In this document: positions 1 to 11,692 of the stretch, one piece after another
Layout of the letters: each line of letters begins with the position of its first letter
Position numbering within the stretch: the stretch's first letter is position 1
From: Spirulina sp.
GTDB lineage: Bacteria > Cyanobacteriota > Cyanobacteriia > Phormidesmidales > Phormidesmidaceae
Assembly (NCBI GenBank): GCA_044070495.1
Contig: JBIPSI010000004.1
Location: 1 to 64,000, forward strand
Direction: 5' to 3'
DNA: 64,000 nt
Notes under the pieces: generated by a model
Database searches by the model: none
Told to the model about the DNA's origin: nothing
What the model saw: the letters and a program-made list of their open reading frames with translations, nothing else
Translations under genes and position numbers: made by a program

Positions 1-322
1 GCCACATCCGGTTCACCCACAACCGCGACCCTGAACCCGCCATGGCCTCTTGCAAACAGCATGACCTGCGTACCGACCGTATCGAGTTCAAAATACACAC
101 GTACTGCTATGCTGCCGACTAGTTTTGTCAGTCAACCAGCCACAGCAGACACCCGACAAAGAGCCTAAAGCCTACTGTAGTCAGGGCCTTCACCAATTTT
201 TCTAGCCCAGGAGAGGAGAGGCATCCGCCGATGATACTCCCAAAAAACAGGATCGTTCGGCCTATGGCCTTGAATCAGACTGAAACCCTTGATTCCTCGA
301 TCTTCTCCATGGCTCAGTGGTT

Positions 323-1486
323 TTAGCCCTGCAGCGGGGCACTGGTTGTCAAAAAGGCGGCACCCTTTTGGACAATCACAAAGCGCTTGTAGAAAAAAAC
401 CTGGTCTTGGCGGTGGAGACGATCCGCCAGATCCGCCAGGGTTTGCCAAGGGGAATACCGGGGTGGACAGGTGCGGTCGCTGAGCCGATTCCAGAACGCC
501 ATACGGGCCTTGGGGGCGGCGTGGTGGTGCAGCGTTTCCAGCACCATTTGAAAGTGTGCTTCGGACATGTATTCAAACACATTACTGAGGTTGAAGCGGT
601 CGATGGAGTGCTGGTTTTGGCCCAAAAAGTCCTCCAGGGATGTGGTGTGCCACTCCAGGCGATCCAGGTTTTGGCGGATGGCTTCAAAATTTTCGGGCCG
701 CAGGGCGTAGGGCAGTATGGTGTCATAGCCGCTCAGAACAATCCATCGCAGGTAGGGGTTTTGGGCTGGATCTAAGGTGGTAAGGGCGTAGCGAGTGCGT
801 CCCAGCAGGTGGTCGGCCAAGGACTGATCGCCGTAGCGCAGAAATTCGGGGTCGGTGCCCAAATGCCCTAGCGTAAAGCGCGAGAAAAACGCCCGAAACA
901 ACCACCGCCACCGCCAGCTATCCCATTGTTCGGTGTACCAGGCCTCGCGTTCGGCGGGAGAAAGCCCCTTAAAAATCGGTCGCCAAACCTGGGGAGAATG
1001 AACCAAGGGCAGCACCCAGCGGCGAAATAGGGCCAGGTAGCGCTCAAACTTGCCGCTGTGAAGAATTCCTTGGGCAACGGTCTGGGGGCGGTGATCCCAA
1101 AATTCCCTGGCTGGGGGCGAGAGTTCCTTGCGGCAGCGCTGGTAAAGCTGCGCCCTGAAAGATCCCAGGGTTCTCAAAGAACCCTGGGATCTGGTTTCCT
1201 GGGATTGTGCCCCCAAAAGCATCAACATTTCGGGATAACTCAGGCTCCGAAAGGCGGCTACTTTGAGTTCCAAACAGGCGATTTGGGCAGGGCTGAGATC
1301 CACCGCCATCACCCGCTGGGGGCTGCGGCTCAGCAGGGCCAGGGTATTGTCGCCACCGGAGGCAATGGAGAGGCAGGTGTGGTGGGGCTGCACCGCCAGG
1401 GCTTCTAGCAAAACGTCGGCATCTTCCCAACACTGGGCATAGCGTAGATGGTCGAAGCGGGTGTGATGTTCTATTTCGCTAGGCAT
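323..1486 (-). CDS. DUF3419/BtaA-like SAM-dependent 3-amino-3-carboxypropyl transferase
   Basis: 387-aa ORF with RYAQCWED, SIASGGDN, VDLSPAQ, GKFERY and LSNVFEYM motifs typical of BtaA/DUF3419. Confidence 0.8.
   Translation of the reverse strand: MPSEIEHHTRFDHLRYAQCWEDADVLLEALAVQPHHTCLSIASGGDNTLALLSRSPQRVMAVDLSPAQIACLELKVAAFRSLSYPEMLMLLGAQSQETRSQGSLRTLGSFRAQLYQRCRKELSPPAREFWDHRPQTVAQGILHSGKFERYLALFRRWVLPLVHSPQVWRPIFKGLSPAEREAWYTEQWDSWRWRWLFRAFFSRFTLGHLGTDPEFLRYGDQSLADHLLGRTRYALTTLDPAQNPYLRWIVLSGYDTILPYALRPENFEAIRQNLDRLEWHTTSLEDFLGQNQHSIDRFNLSNVFEYMSEAHFQMVLETLHHHAAPKARMAFWNRLSDRTCPPRYSPWQTLADLADRLHRQDQVFFYKRFVIVQKGAAFLTTSAPLQG
1160..1192. repeat. 33-bp palindrome (AGATCCCAGGGTTCT-CAA-AGAACCCTGGGATCT) in frame inside the BtaA-like CDS
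   Basis: Perfect 15-bp inverted repeat; the same arms recur at 32560-32625 and 32656-32721. Confidence 0.85.
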
Positions 1487-1551
1487 GGGGCGATTCTATC
1501 GTTTCCTACCAACTCCAACTCCTGCCACCCCGATTTCTGACTCACCTGTCT

Positions 1552-1574
1552 GGGCGCGGGGACTGCGCCCCTAC
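1552..1574 (-). repeat. GTAG-type REP-like hairpin
   Basis: Minus strand reads GTAGGGGCGCAGTCCCCGCGCCC, intergenic. Confidence 0.65.
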
Positions 1575-1582
1575 CCACTCCA

Positions 1583-4540
1583 TTAGGATTGAGCCACCGC
1601 AGGCTGGATTCGCTGCACCCGTCCGGTGCAGCCATCCAGCGTTACCCAGTCGCCCTCTTGCAGAAGGGTGGTTAGGTTGGGCAGGTCGCTCACCATCGGC
1701 AGGCCCAGTTCCCGCGCCACAATCGCCACATGGGACAACACACTACCCCGCTCCACCAGCAACCCCTGGGCATGGGGAAACAGCAGCACCCAGCCCGGAT
1801 CCGTGGAAGTGGCTACCAGAATCTGGGGTTCCTGATTGTGGTGGGATACCCCCTGCCGCTGAAGCCACTGGCGCGGATGGCTCACCAAACACACCCGCCC
1901 CTGGACGGTTCCCGGCGCACAGCCCATACCCTGCCAGGTGTCGGGGTTGTCGGTGGTTTGTGAGATATCTGAATCCTTTGAGAGTCCTAAATCCAGCCTA
2001 GGCACGGATGGGGATGACAGACCCAAACTCGGCAGGCCAAAGGTTTCCAGGCGTCGAGGCAAGGCCGGAGTCGCGAGGTGTTGCTGATACTCGGCTTTGC
2101 GGATGGCCACTAATCCCCGCAGATCCAAGGTGGTAGCAGTGCCTTCCACCAGGCCCATAATTTCTTCGACCTCTAGGAAAAAGATGTCGGCAGGATCCTC
2201 CAGCCAGTCCAACGCATAGAAGCGTTTGCCCAGTTCCACAAACACCCGCCGAGCTTGGCCAAACACACGGGTGCGCTCGAAGCGGAGGTTCTCCCGATTT
2301 CGCACCAGGCGACGGGTGTTGTGCAGCACCCAGCGAAAGAGGATGGCTTTGGGGCCGTTGACGTTCATCGACATCGACGTTGTTGGGGATTGATCCCCCC
2401 TAGCCCCCCTTGAGAAGGGGGGAACTGGAGCCAAAGTCTTCCTTGGGAAGGGGGGAACTGGAGTCAAAGTCCCCCTTTTTAAGGGGGATTTAGGGGGATC
2501 TCCAGGCCTAGAGCTACTGTCCGGTCTTCCCTCTCCTACAGGGCGAGGGGTTGGGGGTGAGGGCTTCTGCGCCATGTAACCCACGGTTCGCAGCAGGGGC
2601 AGAGGATCGTCGGCTAGGGTGGGGCTTTCCAGCTTGAGTTCTTCGAGGCAGCGATCCCCAAATTTTTCCAAATACTGCTGATAAGCCGTTTCTAAGGACG
2701 GGATAGTCCTCAAAGTGCGCTGAATTTCGGCTAGCGACCCGTTGCAGAAGATCTCGATCTGATCAGGATCATCTGCCAAGAGGGTCGCCATTGCCGTCAT
2801 GCGCTGGGCGGGTTCGGTGCTGATGATGTCGCCCGTTAGGCTGATTAGGGTATTTTGCAAAGCTCCAGTGGTGTCGCCGCCCCAGCGCGTGACGAGTTTT
2901 TTCAGTACGCCGTAGAAAATCATGGCAAAGAAGTCGTTAATCAGCGGCGCATCCCAGTGGGTGAGGAGTTCGCCTTCGATGCGGCGATAGATTTTCACCA
3001 GTTCGTCGGGCCGTTGGTCGGGCAGGGTGGCCAGCTGGTCTGCCGTCATCAGCACCCGACCCAGCCGCTGGTGGTAGCGCTGGATGCGGTGGTTGAGGGT
3101 GAGGTAGTTGGTCACAATGCGCCCGGTAGACCAGGCCAGTCGCAGGGCATCGGCCACGGGATGGGTCTGATTTTGGCGACGAATCTCGGCCATCACCGCA
3201 TCGGGCAGGCCCTGCTGTACCCCCAGCATTTGCTCTAAAAACCGCGCATTCAGCCGATATCCCGGCAAAAAGGTCAACACCCGATACCAGCTCAGCAGAT
3301 TGTAGTAAATCCGCCCCTGCAAGAAGCCAATCATGGTCTGAAACACCTGGCGATGCTGGGCAATCACCCCATTGGGCACCCCCATAAAACGGCAAAACTG
3401 TTGATACACCTCGGTATAGGCCTTGCGGGCAAAGGAAAAGGTCAAGGGCGTCGTGACGCCGCTGTAGCTCTCCACGATGTTACTGTTGTCCCACAGGCCA
3501 TAGGTGCCATCGGGGTCGGGTTGAGTGGCCAGCGTGGTGATGGGGCGGGCTTGCAAGAGGTAGAGGTTGGCCCTTGCCCTCACCCTAAATCCCTCTCCCA
3601 AGGTGGGAGAGGGACTTTGAAGATCGGCCTCCCCCTCTCCCACGGGGAGAGGGGGACTGAGGGGGTGAGGGCTCCAGGCCCACTCGATATCCTGGGGGCG
3701 GGCTTGGTGGTGGCCGATGGTTCGGGCCAGATGGGCAATTTCGAGGATTTGGCTATCCGTTAGCACCGCCCGCTGTTGGGCTTCGGCGGGGACGGCTTCC
3801 CAGGTGAGATCCCCTGATGTGCTGGTCTGCTGGCGCTGGGTTTGCAGGGCTAAGCGGCGTTCTAGAATCTGTCCTTCCCGGCTCACCAGGTAGGTATCGC
3901 CCACCACGTCTCCGTTGACCAAGGCCGCAGATAGTCCGTAGACCGCTTGGATGACCGTTACCCCCCGCTTCCCACTCACCGGATCGGCACTGAAGGCCAC
4001 CCCAGCCGCCACGGGATTGAGCATGGGCTGAATGAGGACGGCGGGTGGTTGTAGGTCGGCAGGGCGCGGGTCATCGGATGGGCGAGGAGACCTCGCCCCT
4101 ACGGTGTGATAGGTTTGCAGGGCTTCAGAAAAGGCGGATTGCCAAACCCGCAGAATGGCGTTGTCCAAGTCCGCTAGCGCTACCCCTAGGACGGTTTCCA
4201 ACTGTCCGGCGTAGCTTTGCTGGGTACCGTCCTCCGCCAAGGCCGACGACCGCACGGCCCACCGCTGTTCTGGCCTTCCCACCAATTCTAGGCACTGCCT
4301 CACTTCCGCCATCACGGCTGGGGCAAGGCGGGTTGGGAGTCGGTGGTTTCCCAAAGTTAGGGCGTCGCCATTACAGAGATGCAGCGAATCCCAAAAGGCC
4401 TGGGGCAGCAGAACAACGCCTGGTAGCGCGGGAAAACCTGCCAGGACTAGGTGCGCTAGGGTCGCCGCTTTGCCACCGAGGTGAGGCAGGGCTTCGGGTG
4501 AAGGGGGATGTTCTGAGCTGAACCAGGTGCAGTAGGACAT
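1583..4540 (-). CDS. PEP/pyruvate-binding (ATP-grasp) plus C-terminal phospho-His swivel protein; rifampin phosphotransferase-like small-molecule dikinase
   Basis: GGKA, RSSALAEDG..SYAGQ, DIEWA and QARPIT motifs, and C-terminal TDPGW...GSVLSHVAIVARELG with the catalytic His; start set at MSYCTW because the upstream extension is repeat-derived. Confidence 0.85.
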   Translation of the reverse strand: MSYCTWFSSEHPPSPEALPHLGGKAATLAHLVLAGFPALPGVVLLPQAFWDSLHLCNGDALTLGNHRLPTRLAPAVMAEVRQCLELVGRPEQRWAVRSSALAEDGTQQSYAGQLETVLGVALADLDNAILRVWQSAFSEALQTYHTVGARSPRPSDDPRPADLQPPAVLIQPMLNPVAAGVAFSADPVSGKRGVTVIQAVYGLSAALVNGDVVGDTYLVSREGQILERRLALQTQRQQTSTSGDLTWEAVPAEAQQRAVLTDSQILEIAHLARTIGHHQARPQDIEWAWSPHPLSPPLPVGEGEADLQSPSPTLGEGFRVRARANLYLLQARPITTLATQPDPDGTYGLWDNSNIVESYSGVTTPLTFSFARKAYTEVYQQFCRFMGVPNGVIAQHRQVFQTMIGFLQGRIYYNLLSWYRVLTFLPGYRLNARFLEQMLGVQQGLPDAVMAEIRRQNQTHPVADALRLAWSTGRIVTNYLTLNHRIQRYHQRLGRVLMTADQLATLPDQRPDELVKIYRRIEGELLTHWDAPLINDFFAMIFYGVLKKLVTRWGGDTTGALQNTLISLTGDIISTEPAQRMTAMATLLADDPDQIEIFCNGSLAEIQRTLRTIPSLETAYQQYLEKFGDRCLEELKLESPTLADDPLPLLRTVGYMAQKPSPPTPRPVGEGRPDSSSRPGDPPKSPLKRGTLTPVPPFPRKTLAPVPPFSRGARGDQSPTTSMSMNVNGPKAILFRWVLHNTRRLVRNRENLRFERTRVFGQARRVFVELGKRFYALDWLEDPADIFFLEVEEIMGLVEGTATTLDLRGLVAIRKAEYQQHLATPALPRRLETFGLPSLGLSSPSVPRLDLGLSKDSDISQTTDNPDTWQGMGCAPGTVQGRVCLVSHPRQWLQRQGVSHHNQEPQILVATSTDPGWVLLFPHAQGLLVERGSVLSHVAIVARELGLPMVSDLPNLTTLLQEGDWVTLDGCTGRVQRIQPAVAQS
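2392..2500. repeat. GATCCCCC...GGGGGATC element with three CCTT-NNN-AAGG hairpins at 33-bp period, in frame in the dikinase CDS
   Basis: Same termini and unit as the copies at 17441-17650 and 23904-24037. Confidence 0.85.
2529..2564. repeat. CCCTCTCC-hairpin/GGTGAGGGC short dispersed repeat inside the dikinase CDS
   Basis: Encodes PSPPTPRPVGEG; matches the copies at 3576-3672, 4758-4797, 5648-5681 and 57132-57162. Confidence 0.75.
3576..3672. repeat. Double CCCTCTCCC-N-GGGAGAGGG hairpin element with GCCCTCACC/GGTGAGGGC inverted ends, in frame
   Basis: Lies between the conserved DIEWA and LYLLQARPIT motifs, which are normally only a few residues apart. Confidence 0.85.
4080..4102 (-). repeat. 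GTAG-type REP-like hairpin inside the dikinase CDS
   Basis: Minus strand reads GTAGGGGCGAGGTCTCCTCGCCC, encoding VGARSPRP. Confidence 0.7.
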
Positions 4541-4552
4541 GGGGTGGAGAAA

Positions 4553-4587
4553 TCGGGAGTCGGGAGTCGGGAGTCGGGAGTCGGGGT
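4553..4587. repeat. Heptamer tandem repeat (TCGGGAG)x4-5, STRR-like
   Basis: Read directly; 7-mer tandem repeats are typical of filamentous cyanobacteria. Confidence 0.85.
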
Positions 4588-4642
4588 GGTGCATTGCTTC
4601 GCGCTGGCGCTAGCCTCGCCCTTGGCGTTATGCACCCTACGA
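4588..4642 (-). repeat. GTAG-type REP (TCGTAGGGTGCAT...AATGCACC) carrying an internal ~25-nt insert
   Basis: Matches the copy at 57181-57214 apart from the extra segment at 4604-4629. Confidence 0.7.
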
Positions 4643-4649
4643 ATGTTTT

Positions 4650-5744
4650 CTATTTCCCCAAAAGCCAGGGCAACCAGCCCAGGCTGAGGTAGACGCCCAA
4701 AGTCCAAATCGCGGTGGGTGTATCCAAAATGTCGTAGATCTTTCGCGTCGATTCCGTCCCCCCCTCTCCCACGGGGAGAGGGGCCGGGGGTGAGGGCCGA
4801 GGACTCTGGGCAGCAGAAAACTTACCCAGCCAAGGCCATGTCTTCAACCCAATCCATCCCATCAGCGCCGCCAAAATGGGGACGGCAATTGCTAGGGCAT
4901 TGATAGACCAAGCCGTCCAAAAGGAAAAGATCGCCGTCAACAAAATGGCCCCCAACCAAAGCCGCACCGCCCCAGACAGACCCCACAAAGCGCTATAGGT
5001 TTCTACGCCCGGCTCTTCTCCGGCGGGTAGGCGAATTTTGCGGCCTAGTTCAATCACTAAGCCATTGCAAAAACAAGCCAGCAGAAAGGGAAAAATACCC
5101 TGAGAAAAGACGGTTCCAGCGGTCAAAATCGTTTGTGTGGCAACGGCATAACCTGCAATCAGCGGCACAATCACCATGTGGCTGAGTACGTAGGCGACGG
5201 GATGGGACTTCAGCCAATGGCGCACGAAAAATTCTTTACACATCAGCCCAAAGTAGGCCCAGACGCCAATCAAAAATCCCAGCAAAGTAGGTGCTAACCA
5301 GAGGGCTAAACTCGCCTGAATCACGGCGCTAATCAGTCCTAAAATAGCCAACTCTCGCAAACTCACTAGGCCACGGGGAACGGGGCGATAGGGGCGATAT
5401 TGGGTGTCGTCAGCAAGGTCTTTGAATTCGTCCGCCACCCGCATTTGCCAGAAAAAAGCAAAGGTACTCGCAAAGGCCACAAAGGCCGAGGAAAGGGCCG
5501 GACGAGTATCGGTAAGACTGGCTCCATAGCCCACAGCGGCCCCACTAAAGATGAGGATCAATAGGCCATGCTTAACTAGGGGAAAGCGTTCTTTTTGGTA
5601 AATCCATGCCCGTGTAAATAGGCTTTTTCTAAGTAGAGTTTTGCGGTCCTCACCCCTGCCCCTCTCCCCTAGGGAAAGGGGTTCTGAAGTGTCCCAGGGT
5701 TCCTGAGAAGGGGCAGAACTGGGCACATCGGAATCAGGGACCAT
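4650..5744 (-). CDS. UbiA-superfamily prenyltransferase (divergent)
   Basis: Polytopic membrane protein with Asp-rich motif RVADEFKDLADD..RPYRPVPRG; second motif region ELGRK...EEPGVETYS. Confidence 0.75.
   Translation of the reverse strand: MVPDSDVPSSAPSQEPWDTSEPLSLGERGRGEDRKTLLRKSLFTRAWIYQKERFPLVKHGLLILIFSGAAVGYGASLTDTRPALSSAFVAFASTFAFFWQMRVADEFKDLADDTQYRPYRPVPRGLVSLRELAILGLISAVIQASLALWLAPTLLGFLIGVWAYFGLMCKEFFVRHWLKSHPVAYVLSHMVIVPLIAGYAVATQTILTAGTVFSQGIFPFLLACFCNGLVIELGRKIRLPAGEEPGVETYSALWGLSGAVRLWLGAILLTAIFSFWTAWSINALAIAVPILAALMGWIGLKTWPWLGKFSAAQSPRPSPPAPLPVGEGGTESTRKIYDILDTPTAIWTLGVYLSLGWLPWLLGK
4758..4797. repeat. CCCTCTCCC hairpin repeat inside the UbiA CDS (a second copy lies at 5648-5681)
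   Basis: Encodes PSPPAPLPVGEG; the 5648 copy encodes PLSLGERGRGE. Confidence 0.75.
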
Positions 5745-5871
5745 GGTAAGGGAATGTAATGTGGGCGCGACGGCAGTTGGGTAAGTGGCCAATCTAACCA
5801 CCAATAACCAATAACAAGTAGCTCTAATCTAAGCCTCTAATGACGGGATAAGCCCCACCCTAGGACAGTCC

Positions 5872-6282
5872 CTAAGCTGCACCAGGGGCGTTGGGCGCAT
5901 CAGGATTGCCCTGCACCCGCGCAATGGCCTGGGTGATCTCGGATTCTGTCCAACCCTGGCGCTGTAGGCGGCGTTGGAGTTGGTCGTCGTTGGCCCCCGC
6001 TTGCAGGGCACGGCCCACATAGGTTGTCAGGGCTTCGGCTTGGGGATCGGATTCGGGATGGGCAGGGGCATGATCACCCCGAATGGCTTCCCAAAGGGTG
6101 ATTATGAGTAGCCCCACACCAAAGGCTAAGGCCATCCAAAAGATGCCACCAATACCGAGGGTGCAAAGGATCGAGTAAAAGAACAGTTGTCCTGCTGAAC
6201 TGGGGCCAAGGGTTAAGACTAAACCACCCGCCACCATTAGGCCACCTAAGATTGTGCTAAACGCAATTTTGGAGAAGGGCAT
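5872..6282 (-). CDS. Hypothetical membrane protein (2-3 TM plus small C-terminal helical domain)
   Basis: ATG lies 7 bp after the upstream stop; hydrophobic N-half and LQRQGWTESEI-type C-terminal motif. Confidence 0.65.
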   Translation of the reverse strand: MPFSKIAFSTILGGLMVAGGLVLTLGPSSAGQLFFYSILCTLGIGGIFWMALAFGVGLLIITLWEAIRGDHAPAHPESDPQAEALTTYVGRALQAGANDDQLQRRLQRQGWTESEITQAIARVQGNPDAPNAPGAA

Positions 6283-6289
6283 CACATCC

Positions 6290-7312
6290 TCACAGACGAT
6301 TATCGAGGGCAATTTCCCAGTAGCGTACTAGGCCGATGACTAGGGCCATATAGCAGGGAATAGCGAAGGCAATTTCGACAGGAGCATTAATGACAGGAAT
6401 CAGAAAACCTGTGAAGTTAGCAACGGCACTAGGCCCATAGACTCGAATACCGTTGACGAACAAATAATATTCAATGGGCAGGGCAATGGCAGTACAAATG
6501 GATAGGGCCATCACAAAACGAGTGGCGATGGGATAGTGAGGAAAGAATCGATAAACAAGCAGGGCCGTAATGGCAATTACCCCCACCCAAATCCCGGTCA
6601 TAATAAAGCTGATGTCGTGGAAAATAAACGACCAACTGGGGAAGCCTTGATTAAGAACCATTGGCTCTACCATTACCTCGAACATGAAAATCGCTAGGGC
6701 TGTCATGGCAATACCTCTGGCCCAGCGAATTTTCTTGAGGGGAATCAGCAGCCTGTCTTCTAGCACAAAGCCCCAGTATTTATAAAATCCAATTACCAGT
6801 CCTGCAAAGACAGGCACATAATAAACTAGTTCAATCGGTACACTGGCAATGGTGAGGCCACTAAGGGAGTCTAATACCTCTGGGGCATAGCTCCGAATAC
6901 CAATATTAACAACCCAAATTTCTAGAGGAAGAGTCAGCAATACAAGAACGCTCAAGTACAGAAAAAATCGTTTCCATTCTCGCCAACTGGGCAACAGTTT
7001 ATCGACAATTTCAACGACTCCCAAAAACAGAATGGCCCAGCCGATGGTCAAAATCCAGCTCACATCATGATACAAATAGGCCCATTGCCCTAGACGAGCA
7101 TTGCGCCACATGGGAGCAGTAAATAGCTCAAAAATCAGCACGCCCACCGCCATAATGCCAAATCGAATCAGGATTTGACTTTGAATTTTGCTGAGGAACC
7201 ATAGCCCTAATCCTAAGGCCAAAAAGACCACTCCTTGAAAGAATAAAGTGGCCGGAGTCGCTGTTTTTTCAAAGGCACAATGGCCCAATAGCCAAAGGGA
7301 ATTTATGAGCAT
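6290..7312 (-). CDS. Internally duplicated polytopic membrane protein, lycopene cyclase (CrtYcd)/CruF-like motifs
   Basis: Two homologous halves (FELFTAPM/FEVMVEPM, YHDVSW/FHDISF, PLE..GIRSY/PIE..GIRVY, VPIE/APVE); AT-richer DNA. The ORF is solid but the family call is tentative. Confidence 0.6.
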   Translation of the reverse strand: MLINSLWLLGHCAFEKTATPATLFFQGVVFLALGLGLWFLSKIQSQILIRFGIMAVGVLIFELFTAPMWRNARLGQWAYLYHDVSWILTIGWAILFLGVVEIVDKLLPSWREWKRFFLYLSVLVLLTLPLEIWVVNIGIRSYAPEVLDSLSGLTIASVPIELVYYVPVFAGLVIGFYKYWGFVLEDRLLIPLKKIRWARGIAMTALAIFMFEVMVEPMVLNQGFPSWSFIFHDISFIMTGIWVGVIAITALLVYRFFPHYPIATRFVMALSICTAIALPIEYYLFVNGIRVYGPSAVANFTGFLIPVINAPVEIAFAIPCYMALVIGLVRYWEIALDNRL

Positions 7313-7589
7313 TGTTATGGCGTCCTAGTTTACGCACGGCACTGTGGACAGTTTCTTAAAGCAAGGTTAGCACCAAGTTATCCGTCCATCCGTGTGCTAA
7401 CGTCAGCCAGCATGGTACACCGATAGACAGCTTCAACAGCATAGTAGCGGGTCTTTTAGAGTCCGCCGTCTATTGAACAAACTTCTTATCGCGATGGCTG
7501 GATCAGTAAGGACAGAGAGAATGCCATAGGGCAACGCAATAAATTGTCATTCTTTGTAACAATATAAATTAGTCAAGATGGCACCTGCC

Positions 7590-9341
7590 CTACTCAAAAA
7601 CGACGGCGGCTTGCTGTTCCTTCAGTTGTTTTTGTTCTCGTTTGGTCAGGGGGCGCTGGGCTTCGTCGAGCTGGTGCTGGAGTCGTTCGCGACGGTCGAT
7701 CTCGGGCAGCTTGAGCACAATGCCCGCCGCCAGCCAGTAGTAGACGTTCACCGGATCCACATCCAGGGGATAGTAGTAGGGAAAAATACTAATAAACAGC
7801 ACAAACACCCACATGGCGGCTCCATAGCCCTTGAGGTTGGGATCTTGGATAGATCGGTAGGCCTTGAAGGTGGCGGCGGTAAGGCTGAGGTACACCGCGA
7901 GGGTGGCTAGCAGCCCTAGCGGGCCAATTTCGTAGAGCAATTTGGGGTGGTAGGTTTCCACTAGTTCCGTTTGGCCAAAGATGCGGGCGGCGTTGGTGGC
8001 GCGGCCTACCCCTCGGCCTAAAATGCCCTGCTGCTGCCGTTGCGCCCACTGAAATTGCTGAATGATGAACTCCTGGGGTGGGGAGGCGGCCCAGCGGCTT
8101 TGGAAGCTGGCGAGGCGTTCGTTGACCACCTCAGGGTTTTGGAACATAAAGATGCCCACCAACAGCACCAGACCCAGCCCCACGGGCAGAAAGCGCTTGA
8201 GGTTGGCCACCTGCCCTGTCAGGATCAGCAGCCCTACAATCGTGGTGGGCACCAGGGCCAAGGCAATCCGCTGGCCCGAAACCACCGCCATCACCCCCAC
8301 CGCCGCCAGGGTTACCAAACCCACAATGCGCCAGAGGAGGGATCGGTCGCTGAAGGCGGTGCCAAAGGCAAAGAAACTGCTGGAAATGAGAAACCAGCCC
8401 CACTGCCAAGGGGCATTAAAGGTACCCGGCAGCCGAATCTGCCCCTGGGATGGGGAATACAGCAGGGAACCACCCACAAAACAGCGGGCCTCTAGGGACG
8501 CCTTAAACAGGTCGGCCCCTTCCCCTACGGTGCCCCGGCAAATTCCGGTTTTGAGCATTAAAAACTGGGTGAACCCCAGCAGGCAGCAGATTAAAATCAC
8601 CACCACCTGCGCCCGCAGCAGCACATAGACATCCTGCCGATCCCGCAGCAGGTAGTAAATACAAGGAATTAGCAGCACATAGCCCAGCAGCACCTTCAGC
8701 CCCAAAACGCCCAGCAGGATTGGAATTTCCCCAGAGGCCGAGAGTTGTTGGCTACCGTTGACCACCAGCAGCGTCAGCATACACAGCCCCACCAGGGCGA
8801 TTAGAGGCCCCTTGATGGCGGGAGGAATAATCAAGGGCTGCTGGGTTTTGCGGCAAAACTGCACCACTCCCCACAGGGCCGGAAAGAACAGGGCATCCTT
8901 GGCCAACTGCAAAATGCCGCTGCCGCCCAAGGCATAGATCACCGTGCCGCTGAAGGGGACGTAGAAAATAAAGGCATAAATCGCCTGCCGGGGATAGCGA
9001 TAGGCCATAGCCATCGTAATAATGGCTGCTGGGGCTGCTAATCCCACCTTTGGCCCCGCCACCAACACCGCCAACACGCCGATTACCCCCGCCACCAGCA
9101 GGATCGTAGACAGGTAACGAATCAAGGCTTGGCGTTCCTTTTTAATCTTGCGCTGTCTAGCCCGTTCCTCCCGGCGGGCCTGTTTGGGGTCTAGGGTATC
9201 CGCCGCTAGGGCCGTAGAATTGGCCACCGACCGTTTTTTCCTTGACCGTTTTTGCTTGGATCGTTTGCCCTTGGCACCCTTGGCACCCTTGGTTGAGGAT
9301 GACGGGGATGAACAAGAGGAGGGACGGGTCGCTCTGGCCAT
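7590..9341 (-). CDS. hpsL: Hormogonium polysaccharide biosynthesis protein HpsL (O-antigen ligase/polymerase-like)
   Basis: RLPGTF.APWQW.WFLI, SGQR, ETYHPKLLYEIG and YYPLDVDPV.VYYW motifs; basic N-terminus. Confidence 0.75.
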   Translation of the reverse strand: MARATRPSSCSSPSSSTKGAKGAKGKRSKQKRSRKKRSVANSTALAADTLDPKQARREERARQRKIKKERQALIRYLSTILLVAGVIGVLAVLVAGPKVGLAAPAAIITMAMAYRYPRQAIYAFIFYVPFSGTVIYALGGSGILQLAKDALFFPALWGVVQFCRKTQQPLIIPPAIKGPLIALVGLCMLTLLVVNGSQQLSASGEIPILLGVLGLKVLLGYVLLIPCIYYLLRDRQDVYVLLRAQVVVILICCLLGFTQFLMLKTGICRGTVGEGADLFKASLEARCFVGGSLLYSPSQGQIRLPGTFNAPWQWGWFLISSSFFAFGTAFSDRSLLWRIVGLVTLAAVGVMAVVSGQRIALALVPTTIVGLLILTGQVANLKRFLPVGLGLVLLVGIFMFQNPEVVNERLASFQSRWAASPPQEFIIQQFQWAQRQQQGILGRGVGRATNAARIFGQTELVETYHPKLLYEIGPLGLLATLAVYLSLTAATFKAYRSIQDPNLKGYGAAMWVFVLFISIFPYYYPLDVDPVNVYYWLAAGIVLKLPEIDRRERLQHQLDEAQRPLTKREQKQLKEQQAAVVFE

Positions 9342-9483
9342 AGATCAACGGCGGTGGGGGCCACTCCACTCTAGCGAAATCTACGGAAACCCAAGACTTG
9401 CCCTCAACCCTGCTTGGCGACCGCCATGTTCTGCCCATTGCGGATGATGGCGTTGAACGGGGGATTCTCTGGGCTGCAAGGGT

Positions 9484-10518
9484 CTAAAAATGTTGAAAGC
9501 CCTGGCTAAAGGAGAGGTCTAGGGTGGTAACAGAGTTCTTATCGTCGGAGGTTTGGCCGTTAGCGGAAAGTTGCAGCTTAACCGTGGGTTCAGCCGTGAG
9601 GTAGCCCAGCAGTTTGCCCTCTGGGCCGAGGTGGCCTTGCAGCACTTGGGCCATGGATTCTGGCAGACAGAGCACCAGTTCAAAATCCTCGCCACCGTAG
9701 AGGCACCAGTCACGGGCTTTTTCTAGCCCCACCCAGGCCACCAGGGCCGGATCGATGGGTAACTGATCGGCATTGAGGACAACTCCGACACCGCTAGCTT
9801 GACATAGGTGCAGCACCGCATTGGCGAGGCCGTCACTGGAATCCATGGCGGTGATGGTGATGGGCTTAGCAAAGGCCCGTAGCAAATTCCGCAGGTGGGC
9901 CACCACATCCAGCCGGGGTTTGGGCCGTTGATGGGCCTGAATCCACCGCTGGCGAACCTCGTCATGGAGAAAAGCCCCCTGGTCAGGGGCTAGCAACAGT
10001 TCCAACCCTGCCCGCGAGAGGCCGTGGTAGCCCGTGGCTAAAAGTACCTGTCCGGGCTGGGCGGTGTGACGATAGAACGCCTTGCCCAGTTCCACCGATC
10101 CAAGGGCGGTGATGGCGATGCTGATGGTGTCTGACCGACAGAGATCGCCACCGATGAGTTGTCCGCCCCAGGTTTCCAGGCAAGCGGCCATGCCTTGGTA
10201 GACCCCTTCCACCCAGGCCACGGGGGTCGCGCTGGGTAAACTCAGGGCCACGGTGATCCCCTGGGGCTCGGCCCCCATGGCGGCAAGGTCAGACAAATTC
10301 GCGGCCATGGCCCGCCAGCCCACATCCTCTGGGGCGGTGGTTTGGTCGCTAAAATGCACCCCGTCCACCAGCATGTCCGTCGTCACCACCAGTTGATGTC
10401 CGGGGGGCAGGGCCAGCACCGCCGCATCGTCTCCGACGAGGTCGATGGGGCAGTAGCGAAAGAGCCGCTGGAGCAGGCCCAGTTCGCCGACCTGCCCAAC
10501 GGTGAGGGATTCAGTCAT
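9484..10518 (-). CDS. thiL: Thiamine-monophosphate kinase
   Basis: GDDAA, TTDMLVDGVHF, NLSDLAAMGA, GGD, DSSDGL and GGEDFEL motifs. Confidence 0.95.
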   Translation of the reverse strand: MTESLTVGQVGELGLLQRLFRYCPIDLVGDDAAVLALPPGHQLVVTTDMLVDGVHFSDQTTAPEDVGWRAMAANLSDLAAMGAEPQGITVALSLPSATPVAWVEGVYQGMAACLETWGGQLIGGDLCRSDTISIAITALGSVELGKAFYRHTAQPGQVLLATGYHGLSRAGLELLLAPDQGAFLHDEVRQRWIQAHQRPKPRLDVVAHLRNLLRAFAKPITITAMDSSDGLANAVLHLCQASGVGVVLNADQLPIDPALVAWVGLEKARDWCLYGGEDFELVLCLPESMAQVLQGHLGPEGKLLGYLTAEPTVKLQLSANGQTSDDKNSVTTLDLSFSQGFQHF

Positions 10519-10519
10519 G

Positions 10520-11692
10520 CTAGGTGGGCTGTACCAGGTTTTCGGCCCCGGATACCACACGGGCCGATTCGATGCGGTCGCCTTGGCCCAACTGCTCTAG
10601 CACCTCTTTGTTCTCGACGACGTAGCCAAACACGGCGTAGCGGCCATCCAGCAGGTTGAGACCAGCGGGGGTCAGTTCCGGCTCGAAGAGGAAGAAGAAG
10701 AACTGGGAGGATCCGCCGTTGGGGTCATCGCCGGGACGGGCCATGCCCAGGGTGCCAAAGGCAGAAAAGGGCAGGACGGGATCATCCAAATAGCGGCCCA
10801 GGTCTTCCAGGGTGGTGCCATAGACGGGGGCATCGTCGCCCTTCACCAAAATTTCCAGGGGCACGGCGCGGTAGGCCTTAGTTTTGGGATCGATAAAGCC
10901 TTCCTCTGGCCCAGCGGGGTCGCCCGTTTGCAGCACGTAGTTTTCTTCGGCGCGAATAAATTCCATGCCGTCGTAGAAGCCTCGCTGCACCAAGTCTACA
11001 AAGTTGCCAGCGGTGACGGGGGCGCTATAGCCATCCACCACGGCCCGCATAGAGCCCTTGTTGGTGACAAACTCTATCGTGGCCCGCCCCTTAAGCTGGG
11101 GCAGGTTGTCGTATTCTTCCGGCACCGCAAAGGGGAAATCCGTCACCATCAGTTCTTCAATGCGGCCCACATCGTCGAGCATGGCGGATCGAGTCATCCA
11201 CACCGCTTCTCGATCCTTGAGATCAATAGCTTCCTTGAGGGGTAGAAGCTGGGTCTGGAGATCGTCTAAATAGCTCACTGCCGCCGCCCGCTTGCCGTCG
11301 GGAATCGCCGCCAGGATGGTCTCTCGATCCCGGCCCAGCAGACGCTCTACCTTAGCCACATCCTTGGCCACTGGACCCCAGCGCTTACTGCGCAGCCATT
11401 CCGACAGGCCCTCTAGGGTGCCCTGAATGTCGCGAATTGCCTTGTTTTCAATGGGCAACGAGTTCCGCAATAGCGCCCGTCCATCGGTGATGGCGTTTCC
11501 GGGCGGCAGGTAGGCCACCGTCAGGGTTGCGCCCAGGGTTTCACCCAGAGCCCCGTTCAGACTGAGCGCCTGGGCCTGACTCGGTTGCCCCGCCCACAGG
11601 CCCATCATCACCAACAGCACCCCAAGCACGGAGAGGAGGGTGCGGGAACTATGCTGCCACCAAGGGCGGCTTACCGTCATGCCTTTGGCCAT
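10520..11692 (-). CDS. Thylakoid lumen cyclophilin-type peptidyl-prolyl isomerase (CYP38/TLP40 homolog)
   Basis: Signal peptide, LPPGNAITDGRALLR, helical domain, then cyclophilin motifs APVTAGNFVDLV and SSQFFFFL. Confidence 0.9.
   Translation of the reverse strand: MAKGMTVSRPWWQHSSRTLLSVLGVLLVMMGLWAGQPSQAQALSLNGALGETLGATLTVAYLPPGNAITDGRALLRNSLPIENKAIRDIQGTLEGLSEWLRSKRWGPVAKDVAKVERLLGRDRETILAAIPDGKRAAAVSYLDDLQTQLLPLKEAIDLKDREAVWMTRSAMLDDVGRIEELMVTDFPFAVPEEYDNLPQLKGRATIEFVTNKGSMRAVVDGYSAPVTAGNFVDLVQRGFYDGMEFIRAEENYVLQTGDPAGPEEGFIDPKTKAYRAVPLEILVKGDDAPVYGTTLEDLGRYLDDPVLPFSAFGTLGMARPGDDPNGGSSQFFFFLFEPELTPAGLNLLDGRYAVFGYVVENKEVLEQLGQGDRIESARVVSGAENLVQPT

Follow-up and report, generated by a model that had tools for sequence, protein, structure and literature searches.

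What do five adjacent genes at one end of a cyanobacterial contig make? The question arises from a 64,000-nucleotide stretch of Spirulina sp. DNA (assembly GCA_044070495.1, contig JBIPSI010000004.1, positions 1 to 64,000; hereafter, the window), in which positions 323-7312 are filled by five minus-strand open reading frames (ORFs), all intact, that we call g1 to g5. They are predicted to encode two membrane proteins (g1 and g2), a UbiA-like membrane protein (g3), a dikinase resembling rifampin phosphotransferase (Rph; g4) and a protein of the DUF3419, or BtaA, family (g5). The annotation of this cluster points to an ordinary betaine lipid; its product is more likely, and probably, an isoprenoid-based lipid with an amino-acid head group. 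We consider it fairly likely that these genes represent, in this genome, a conserved accessory pathway which makes a modified isoprenoid-based polar membrane lipid and whose patchy spread is probably due to horizontal transfer. The enzyme families are known, g1 and g2 belong to unnamed families, and the combination is one for which we found no description: full-text literature searches, which did not cover subscription-only literature, returned no publication on this gene set.

Linkage of the cluster genes across bacterial phyla

A scan of species genomes with a g1 alignment recovered 80 loci, whose record titles name Cyanobacteria, Planctomycetota, Chloroflexota, Verrucomicrobia, a Cyclobacteriaceae genome, Gammaproteobacteria, Riflebacteria and several candidate-phyla lineages. 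Neighbours were assigned by ORF clustering and tblastn; linkage fractions, here and below, were counted on loci with enough flank. The order g1-g2-UbiA-dikinase, with or without a following DUF3419 gene, was colinear in many of these loci from Cyanobacteria, Verrucomicrobia, Cyclobacteriaceae and candidate-phyla bacteria. Directly upstream of g1 stood a gene for a radical-S-adenosylmethionine (SAM)/SPASM enzyme (44 of 51 cyanobacterial and 23 of 24 other loci), and g2 adjoined g1 on its downstream side in 64 of 81 clustered loci. UbiA and the dikinase were both present in 30/48 cyanobacterial and 8/20 other loci, and where there was a dikinase, DUF3419 came next in 18/25 and 2/6, respectively. 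Six non-cyanobacterial loci (four candidate-phyla, two Gammaproteobacteria) carried in the place of DUF3419 a CarS-like gene (PF01864) and a cytidine diphosphate (CDP)-alcohol transferase, whose best NCBIfam match is archaetidylserine synthase (78 bits). DUF3419 was found in none of these six, which also contain small GNATs, PlsC-type acyltransferases and fatty-acyl reductases. A gene for 3-hydroxy-3-methylglutaryl-coenzyme A (HMG-CoA) reductase was present in the Verrucomicrobia, Cyclobacteriaceae and one Caldilineaceae g1 locus.

The same partners were recovered from the other end of the cluster. A DUF3419-alignment scan of metagenomes gave 80 loci (L153-L232), in which the dikinase lay directly upstream of DUF3419 in 37/39, UbiA was present in 17/20, and HMG-CoA reductase often stood just upstream of UbiA. 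The recurrent partner on the far side was a GNAT acyltransferase of ~320 amino acids (aa), downstream of DUF3419 in 48 of 55 metagenome loci and usually placed after a small membrane protein, F8, and before an acyl-CoA-ligase-like gene. In three picocyanobacterial-type loci (L042, L043 and L051), DUF3419 and the GNAT form one ORF. A first-pass annotation of this DNA had noted the lack of a btaB-type partner, which agrees with the GNAT standing there instead; it had also proposed conserved linkage of DUF3419 with UbiA and the dikinase across phyla as the check on its pathway idea, and both scans gave a positive answer. Homology between DUF3419 and the GNAT, suggested by the ORF clustering, was rejected (BLASTP E 1.2), the merged cluster being due to the fused ORFs.

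Thus, the cluster consists of two modules: radical SAM-g1-g2 on the one hand, and (HMG-CoA reductase)-UbiA-dikinase-DUF3419-(F8, GNAT, ligase) on the other. The two are joined in cyanobacteria and in a few other lineages; L012 and L056 are examples of loci with the whole operon, from radical SAM, g1, g2, UbiA, dikinase and DUF3419 to the GNAT and the acyl ligase.

Some loci hold additional genes beside these modules. In Calothrix-type and Planctomycetota loci (L008-L010 and L062), an acyl-AMP ligase, a carrier protein and a reductase lie next to the cluster; L008 has them as one 1029-aa fusion, L062 as separate genes. Class III aminotransferases, found in several further loci, hint at a fatty aldehyde or amine branch.

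Predicted functions of the five proteins

The protein encoded by g5 (1486..323, minus strand; 387 aa) matches PF11899 (DUF3419) over its full length, with 234.8 bits against a cut-off of 28.2 (positions 2-385 of 385), and it is the sole DUF3419 copy in this genome (single match). Its homologs are annotated in their sources as 'DUF3419 family' or 'BtaA family', and a metagenome DUF3419 homolog fell into generic DUF3419 clusters in the ESM Atlas. From this family membership, g5 is presumed to be a SAM-dependent 3-amino-3-carboxypropyl transferase. Pfam identified no methyltransferase ORF among the five genes; BtaB was not searched genome-wide. A homolog of the GNAT partner is encoded in this genome away from the cluster, on contig C1 (280704-281675; positions 7705-8679 of locus L083), beside a DUF92 membrane-protein gene, and it is 32% identical to the operon-linked GNAT of locus L012.

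The dikinase gene g4 (4594..1583, minus strand; 1003 aa) encodes an N-terminal PPDK_N, or ATP-grasp, domain (150 bits) and, at the extreme C-terminus (residues 921-991), the mobile His domain PEP-utilizers (81 bits). Pfam did not identify the C-terminal TIM barrel that binds phosphoenolpyruvate (PEP). The domain order is ATP-grasp, helical central domain and C-terminal swivelling His domain. In an AlphaFold model of g4 (predicted local distance difference test, pLDDT, 76.7), the top Foldseek match was Listeria Rph (5hv1; E 2.4e-34), aligned over 1036 columns and the whole chain at 19% identity, while PEP synthase (2ols; E 1.9e-13) aligned over 401 columns of the ATP-grasp part alone. Sequence matches in the PDB were likewise to Rph structures (5fbs and 5hv1, ~E 8e-39), and the catalytic His955 is invariant in 24 orthologs. 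No NCBIfam equivalog cut-off was reached: g4 scored 198 bits with RIF_Ptrans_rph (cut-off 999), 154 with TIGR01418 (740) and 238-245 with the PigC and RedH ligase models (1300-1350). Judged by its domains and model, g4 is a predicted ATP-dependent dikinase with Rph architecture, as the 'RPH-like' label of the first-pass annotation had it.

The gene g3 ends at 4650 on the minus strand and starts at 5744 (ATG) or 5804 (TTG), giving 364 or 384 aa; which start codon is used is uncertain. Its product scored 30.4 bits with PF01040 (UbiA; E 3.1e-7), below the cut-off of 34.2, 75 bits with PRK13592 (cut-off 443) and 16.7 bits with the NCBIfam model of digeranylgeranylglyceryl phosphate (DGGGP) synthase (cut-off 353). 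None of the lycopene-elongase models in NCBIfam was matched. The first Asp-rich motif, R-x-x-DEFKD-xxx-D (D125-E-F-K-D129-x-x-x-D133), is invariant in nine sequences and aligns with the corresponding motifs of DGGGP synthase and chlorophyll synthase (UbiA pattern N/D-x-x-x-D-x-x-x-D). The second Asp-rich motif (D-x-x-x-D) is replaced by an invariant E252-x-x-R255-K-I-R258. Against solved structures, the g3 family profile came nearest to DGGGP synthase (6m31, E 4e-4), followed by chlorophyll synthase (E 4.6e-3). By these profile matches, g3 is classed as a divergent UbiA-superfamily membrane protein. The domain calls of the first-pass annotation for g3, g4 and g5 therefore hold, that for UbiA weakly.

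The membrane protein encoded by g1 (7312..6290, minus strand; 340 aa) consists of two homologous repeats, whose halves align at 99.8% hhalign probability, and its AlphaFold model (pLDDT 86, predicted template modelling score 0.87) has nine long helices. It matched nothing in Pfam and NCBIfam, and gave no match to PF18916 (Lycopene_cyc) even at E 10. Among 26 members of the g1 family, however, six showed sub-threshold matches to this model (15-20 bits against a gathering score of 27 bits; E 9e-4 to 0.04) that are nearly full-length and lie in one common place, and whole-genome scans with the model singled out g1 in four genomes. Aligned by hhalign with 31 bona fide two-domain cyclases, the g1 family reached 77% probability (E 2e-5, 106 columns), compared with 0.1% for two control profiles. 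These matches, which give substance to the earlier label 'cyclase/hydratase-like', suggest that g1 is remotely homologous to the lycopene-cyclase (CrtYc/d) domain, a relationship that is probable but unproven. In the ESM Atlas, g1 fell into unnamed clusters alone. The family is rare, being present in 2 of 301 sampled cyanobacterial genomes (counting that of the window), and comprises 119 clusters at 50% identity among 1.84 billion representatives. A search for longer or fused forms yielded one 603-aa protein with no Pfam domains.

The gene g2 starts at 6282 (ATG) or 6312 (TTG) and ends at 5872 on the minus strand, encoding a small membrane protein of 136 or 146 aa without a Pfam match. Two helices with an S-I-x-C-T-A-G motif are followed by a C-terminal helical domain of ~45 aa; in the family alignment, S37, C40, T41 and W49 are nearly invariant and G43, L106, G110 and W111 invariant. 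The nearly invariant Cys stands in a hydrophobic segment that we read as the second membrane helix, and the gene normally lies near a radical-SAM/SPASM gene; g2 could be acted on by that enzyme instead of serving as a plain subunit.

The cluster in this genome and its close relatives

Of 121 sampled genomes from the order, the identical five contain g1, g5 and the GNAT gene; two control genes occur in 83 and 115. In the four relatives that share them, the cluster genes are scattered but all intact, with g1-g3 and g4-g5 at separate loci. In one of these (G453), radical SAM-g1-g2-UbiA is found at 0.70 Mb, the GNAT gene at 1.86 Mb and the dikinase-DUF3419 pair at 4.2 Mb, where it is flanked by hisF-like and Uma2-family genes. 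We found g1 to g5 contiguous only in the window, in two short loci (L003 and L153) and in more distant cyanobacteria; L003 also has the junction of hpsL and g1 in common with the window. The first-pass annotation had raised the possibility that the cluster continues beyond the left edge of the window. No such continuation is visible: window positions 1-141 are a contig-end repeat, and the module stops at DUF3419 in three same-genus genomes that were read, a gene beyond it (the Uma2-family gene) being annotated in G453 alone.

CarS-like and CDP-alcohol-transferase proteins had no tblastn match in this genome. Two candidate observations did not survive closer inspection. Apparent decay of the radical-SAM and UbiA genes in the relatives was dropped, as the flagged stop codons proved on translation to be those that normally terminate the intact genes. 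On contig C6, an ORF resembling F8 was rejected as a dispersed member of the pathway, since it belongs to the core genome (115/121 genomes) and lies amid housekeeping genes.

Locus layout, selection and repeats

The ORFs and measured gaps bear out the earlier description of five co-oriented genes separated by 7-127 bp. The g1-g2 gap is 7 bp if g2 starts at the ATG at 6282 (the TTG at 6312 would give a 23-bp overlap), and the remaining gaps are 67 or 127 bp (g2-g3), 55 bp (g3-g4) and 96 bp (g4-g5). A site scan found no terminator-like site in any of these gaps; over the scan as a whole, promoter-like and terminator-like sites were no more numerous than in shuffles. Compared with same-genus orthologs, all five genes have ratios of nonsynonymous to synonymous substitution (dN/dS) of 0.03-0.22, which indicates purifying selection (g1 0.03-0.06, g2 0.15-0.21, g3 0.12-0.21, g4 0.16-0.22 and g5 0.09-0.16), although dS was high in these comparisons (0.6-2.4) and the pairwise values are compatible with recent relaxation.

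Base composition changes along the cluster. Its upstream end is AT-richer, as noted before, with GC of 0.45-0.47 at 6501-7500 versus 0.57 for the whole window. GC at third codon positions (GC3) is 0.475 in g1 and 0.475-0.577 across g1-g3, rises to 0.68-0.69 in g4 and g5, and is ~0.71 in flanking genes; the step between g1-g3 and g4-g5 fits two modules of different history. Between g1 and the hpsL-like gene lies an AT-rich spacer of 277 bp (7313..7589), the presumed promoter region, which contains a lone minus-strand promoter-like site (7576-7549; a count not above shuffles) and no radical-SAM remnant. Positions 3-186 of this spacer (window 7315-7498) are 76% identical to the corresponding spacer of L003. 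Further upstream, at 7590-11692 and on the same strand, ordinary cyanobacterial genes follow: one of the hpsL type, for hormogonium polysaccharide (NCBIfam EPS_HpsL, 790 bits), then thiL and a gene for a CYP38-like peptidyl-prolyl isomerase, by which the host is recognised as a cyanobacterium.

Repeats occur both between and within the genes. Of two gaps said in the first-pass annotation to be filled mainly by repetitive extragenic palindromic sequences, the g4-g3 gap (4595..4649) is indeed repetitive, with 18 blastn-short matches in the genome; the g5-g4 gap (1487-1582) is not, holding a GC-rich hairpin that is single-copy (blastn-short matched itself alone). Within the coding sequence of g3 and g4 are in-frame inserts derived from multi-copy palindromic repeats. 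One lies in the ATP-grasp domain of g4 (3572..3673, minus strand, residues 308-341; 108 genome matches by blastn-short for the tested stretch 3559-3679); it is missing in orthologs of other genera, occupies the same site in 3/3 same-genus genomes compared, and has pLDDT <50 at residues 314-341. A second insert or linker in g4 (2369..2554, minus strand, approximately residues 681-742; 239 blastn-short matches for the tested stretch 2314-2509) is variable yet retained in same-genus orthologs, with pLDDT <50 at residues 681-742. Since the g4 inserts occupy shared sites in the three same-genus orthologs and are modelled as disordered loops, they are judged old and tolerated. A third insert, near the C-terminus of g3 (4754..4829, minus strand; 77 blastn-short matches), is missing in seven orthologs outside the genus and found in the same-genus locus L005. 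Finally, a multi-copy repeat occupies the contig end (1..141), 182 bp past the g5 stop. The termini of other contigs match it, that of C62 at 100% identity and those of C56 and C20 at 88%, and the repeat probably represents a mobile element at which the assembly broke off; the contig terminates 322 bp beyond g5.

A proposed pathway and its alternatives

Domain identities, intact frames, purifying selection and cross-phylum linkage are results of computation, from which we infer a product and a series of chemical steps. The UbiA-like protein g3 would join a polyprenyl chain to a membrane acceptor. The isoprenoid tail may then be modified by g1 and its small partner g2 through acid-catalysed double-bond chemistry (cyclisation or hydration), after the manner of lycopene-cyclase-domain enzymes; in complete systems the upstream radical-SAM/SPASM enzyme would participate in this step, and because its gene was not found in this genome, the step is perhaps altered or incomplete here. 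Next, g4 would phosphorylate a hydroxyl of the lipid or a precursor via phospho-histidine, converting ATP to AMP and phosphate as rifampin phosphotransferase does. The putative transferase g5 would move the 3-amino-3-carboxypropyl group of SAM onto the lipid, giving a homoserine-type head group, whose amine the GNAT may N-acylate; the candidate gene for this last step is on contig C1 here, and elsewhere an acyl-CoA-ligase-like gene follows it. In the six non-cyanobacterial loci described above, the g5 step would be replaced by CDP activation of the lipid by the CarS-like enzyme and addition of a head group by the archaetidylserine-synthase-like CDP-alcohol transferase. An isoprenoid lipid with an N-acylated amino-acid head group is suggested by the recurrent partners of the cluster: HMG-CoA reductase, a DGGGP-synthase-like UbiA, the alternative pair of CarS-like enzyme and CDP-alcohol transferase, the GNAT, and acyl-ligase, acyltransferase and acyl-reductase genes.

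Several observations weigh against this pathway. The order of its steps and the substrate of the dikinase are guesses. The sub-cut-off Pfam score of g3, together with its missing second Asp-rich motif, means that it may not be a canonical prenyltransferase. The link between g1 and lycopene cyclases stands at the hhalign probability given above, for a protein that itself has no Pfam match; Foldseek of g1 against the PDB returned nothing at E <= 0.001 (best 0.13), and in a wide VIA fold search the best match, a mycobacterial Insig homolog (Z 7.2, 134 residues), was in the noise range for helical proteins. Neither polyprenyl synthase nor glycerol-backbone genes were seen in the annotated neighbourhoods; nor were geranylgeranylglyceryl phosphate (GGGP) synthase or glycerol-1-phosphate dehydrogenase, although no search was aimed at GGGP synthase. 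The shared genes come from a single subclade of five genomes, mutual closest relatives, so that their co-occurrence counts as one event rather than five. In addition, g1 and the radical-SAM gene were present in just 1 of 20 DUF3419 metagenome loci. Taken with the GC3 difference and the separate loci in the relatives, this suggests that the g1/g2 and UbiA-dikinase-DUF3419 parts may have separable functions. Lastly, tblastn did not find the radical-SAM partner in this genome (the best match was a generic paralog at 33% identity), and the gene is intact in 4/4 close relatives.

This last point raises the possibility that the cluster is a non-functional or only partly functional remnant here, with its radical-SAM gene lost, repeat insertions in g3 and g4, and g5 next to a mobile repeat. 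The repeat-derived inserts and the contig-end repeat would fit such a history. We nevertheless consider it unlikely, as all five ORFs are intact with the low dN/dS values given above, the g4 inserts recur in all three orthologs compared from the genus and form disordered loops in the model, and the hpsL-g1 junction is also found in L003. Moreover, with the assembly 97% complete and divided among 74 contigs, a simple failure to assemble the radical-SAM gene may account for its absence. Ordinary synthesis of the betaine lipid diacylglyceryltrimethylhomoserine (DGTS), with g5 as a simple BtaA whose substrate is diacylglycerol and whose neighbours are unrelated, is what the family name of g5 would imply; the cluster has no methyltransferase gene, however, and the missing BtaB and the conserved partners (the dikinase upstream, the GNAT downstream and the DUF3419-GNAT fusions) make this explanation highly improbable.

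Two other explanations give the genes a different product. C50 carotenoid synthesis pairs CrtEb with CrtYe/Yf, and LyeJ with CruF. The cluster might similarly modify a carotenoid or another terpenoid pigment, with the UbiA-like protein as an elongase, g1 as a cyclase or hydratase, and the dikinase and the BtaA-like enzyme adding a polar end group. The likeness of g1 to the lycopene-cyclase domain, the position of UbiA beside this two-domain cyclase-like protein and a host inferred to be a carotenoid-making cyanobacterium all speak for it. Yet no phytoene synthase or desaturase gene was present in any annotated neighbourhood, g3 matched no lycopene-elongase model, and the neighbours of the gene set in candidate-phyla bacteria and Anaerolineae (CarS-like, CDP-alcohol-transferase, PlsC-type and fatty-acyl-reductase genes) speak for membrane lipids; we therefore doubt the pigment explanation. 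SPASM-type radical-SAM enzymes mostly mature peptides, and g2 has its nearly invariant Cys. The cluster could make a peptide or other small-molecule natural product, either through modification of g2 by the radical-SAM/SPASM enzyme or through a PigC-like g4 that activates a carbonyl for condensation, for which the PigC and RedH scores of g4 might be cited. Those scores are far under the cut-offs of the two models, g2 is a membrane protein of ~140 aa whose Cys lies in a presumed membrane helix, unlike a leader-core precursor, and the accessory genes are of lipid type. A natural product thus seems improbable.

The accessory pathway for a modified isoprenoid-based polar membrane lipid consequently remains the explanation that we favour. 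A bolder version is possible, although we rate it as rather unlikely. In it, the cluster would make bacterial membrane lipids of a class not recognised so far. The DGGGP-synthase-like UbiA would attach their isoprenoid chain, the cyclase-like protein and the radical-SAM enzyme would remodel it, and the head group would be an N-acylated amino acid: in cyanobacteria and soil bacteria homoserine derived from SAM, in candidate-phyla bacteria phosphoserine via archaeal-type CDP activation. If this were true, at least seven labelled bacterial phyla would have members with a mobile route to isoprenoid polar lipids that is archaeal-like in part, and many metagenomic 'btaA' calls would mark a new lipid rather than DGTS.

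The cluster also bears on the use of btaA as a marker. In excerpts of a study of microbial mats (PMC7153904), btaA (K13622) serves as a metagenomic marker of phosphorus limitation, and its abundance correlates with that of psbA at r = 0.995. As far as those excerpts go, cyanobacterial DUF3419 genes of the present type could explain such a btaA-psbA signal without DGTS. More broadly, were the product an isoprenoid amino-lipid, the known lipids of cyanobacteria, soil bacteria and candidate-phyla bacteria would gain a class, and the cluster would offer a testable case of archaeal-type lipid enzymes at work in bacteria.

Comparison with known systems

The closest named counterpart of g5 is the BtaA/BtaB system for the betaine lipid DGTS, reportedly described by Riekhof and colleagues in 2005 from Rhodobacter and other bacteria. 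Like BtaA, g5 belongs over its full length to the same Pfam family and is presumed to transfer the 3-amino-3-carboxypropyl group from SAM to a lipid. Unlike that system, the cluster is associated with a GNAT, sometimes fused, rather than with BtaB, and its DUF3419 gene is linked to genes for a dikinase and a UbiA-like protein.

The dikinase g4 shares with Rph (5hv1, 5fbs) its three-domain order, a whole-chain fold match and the catalytic His. It differs from Rph in its low score with the family model, its low identity, its two repeat-derived inserts and a context of lipid biosynthesis instead of antibiotic resistance. From PEP synthase (pyruvate, water dikinase), g4 is set apart by the missing C-terminal TIM barrel and by its TIGR01418 score.

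The putative cyclase g1 resembles the lycopene-cyclase-domain enzymes (CrtYc/Yd and CrtYe/Yf; PF18916) in that both are built from paired small multi-helix membrane domains, with an acidic residue in a helix, an aromatic-x-P turn and a (V/L)P-I-E motif in common. Each g1 repeat, in contrast, has extra N-terminal helices with invariant motifs of their own, and the gene context lacks carotenoid genes.

Finally, the cluster departs from the archaeal ether-lipid pathway in that all its matches are far under the equivalog cut-offs and that the dikinase and g1/g2 are additional. What the two have in common is that DGGGP synthase is the nearest solved relative of g3 and that loci in other phyla carry the CarS-like and archaetidylserine-synthase-like genes within the operon.

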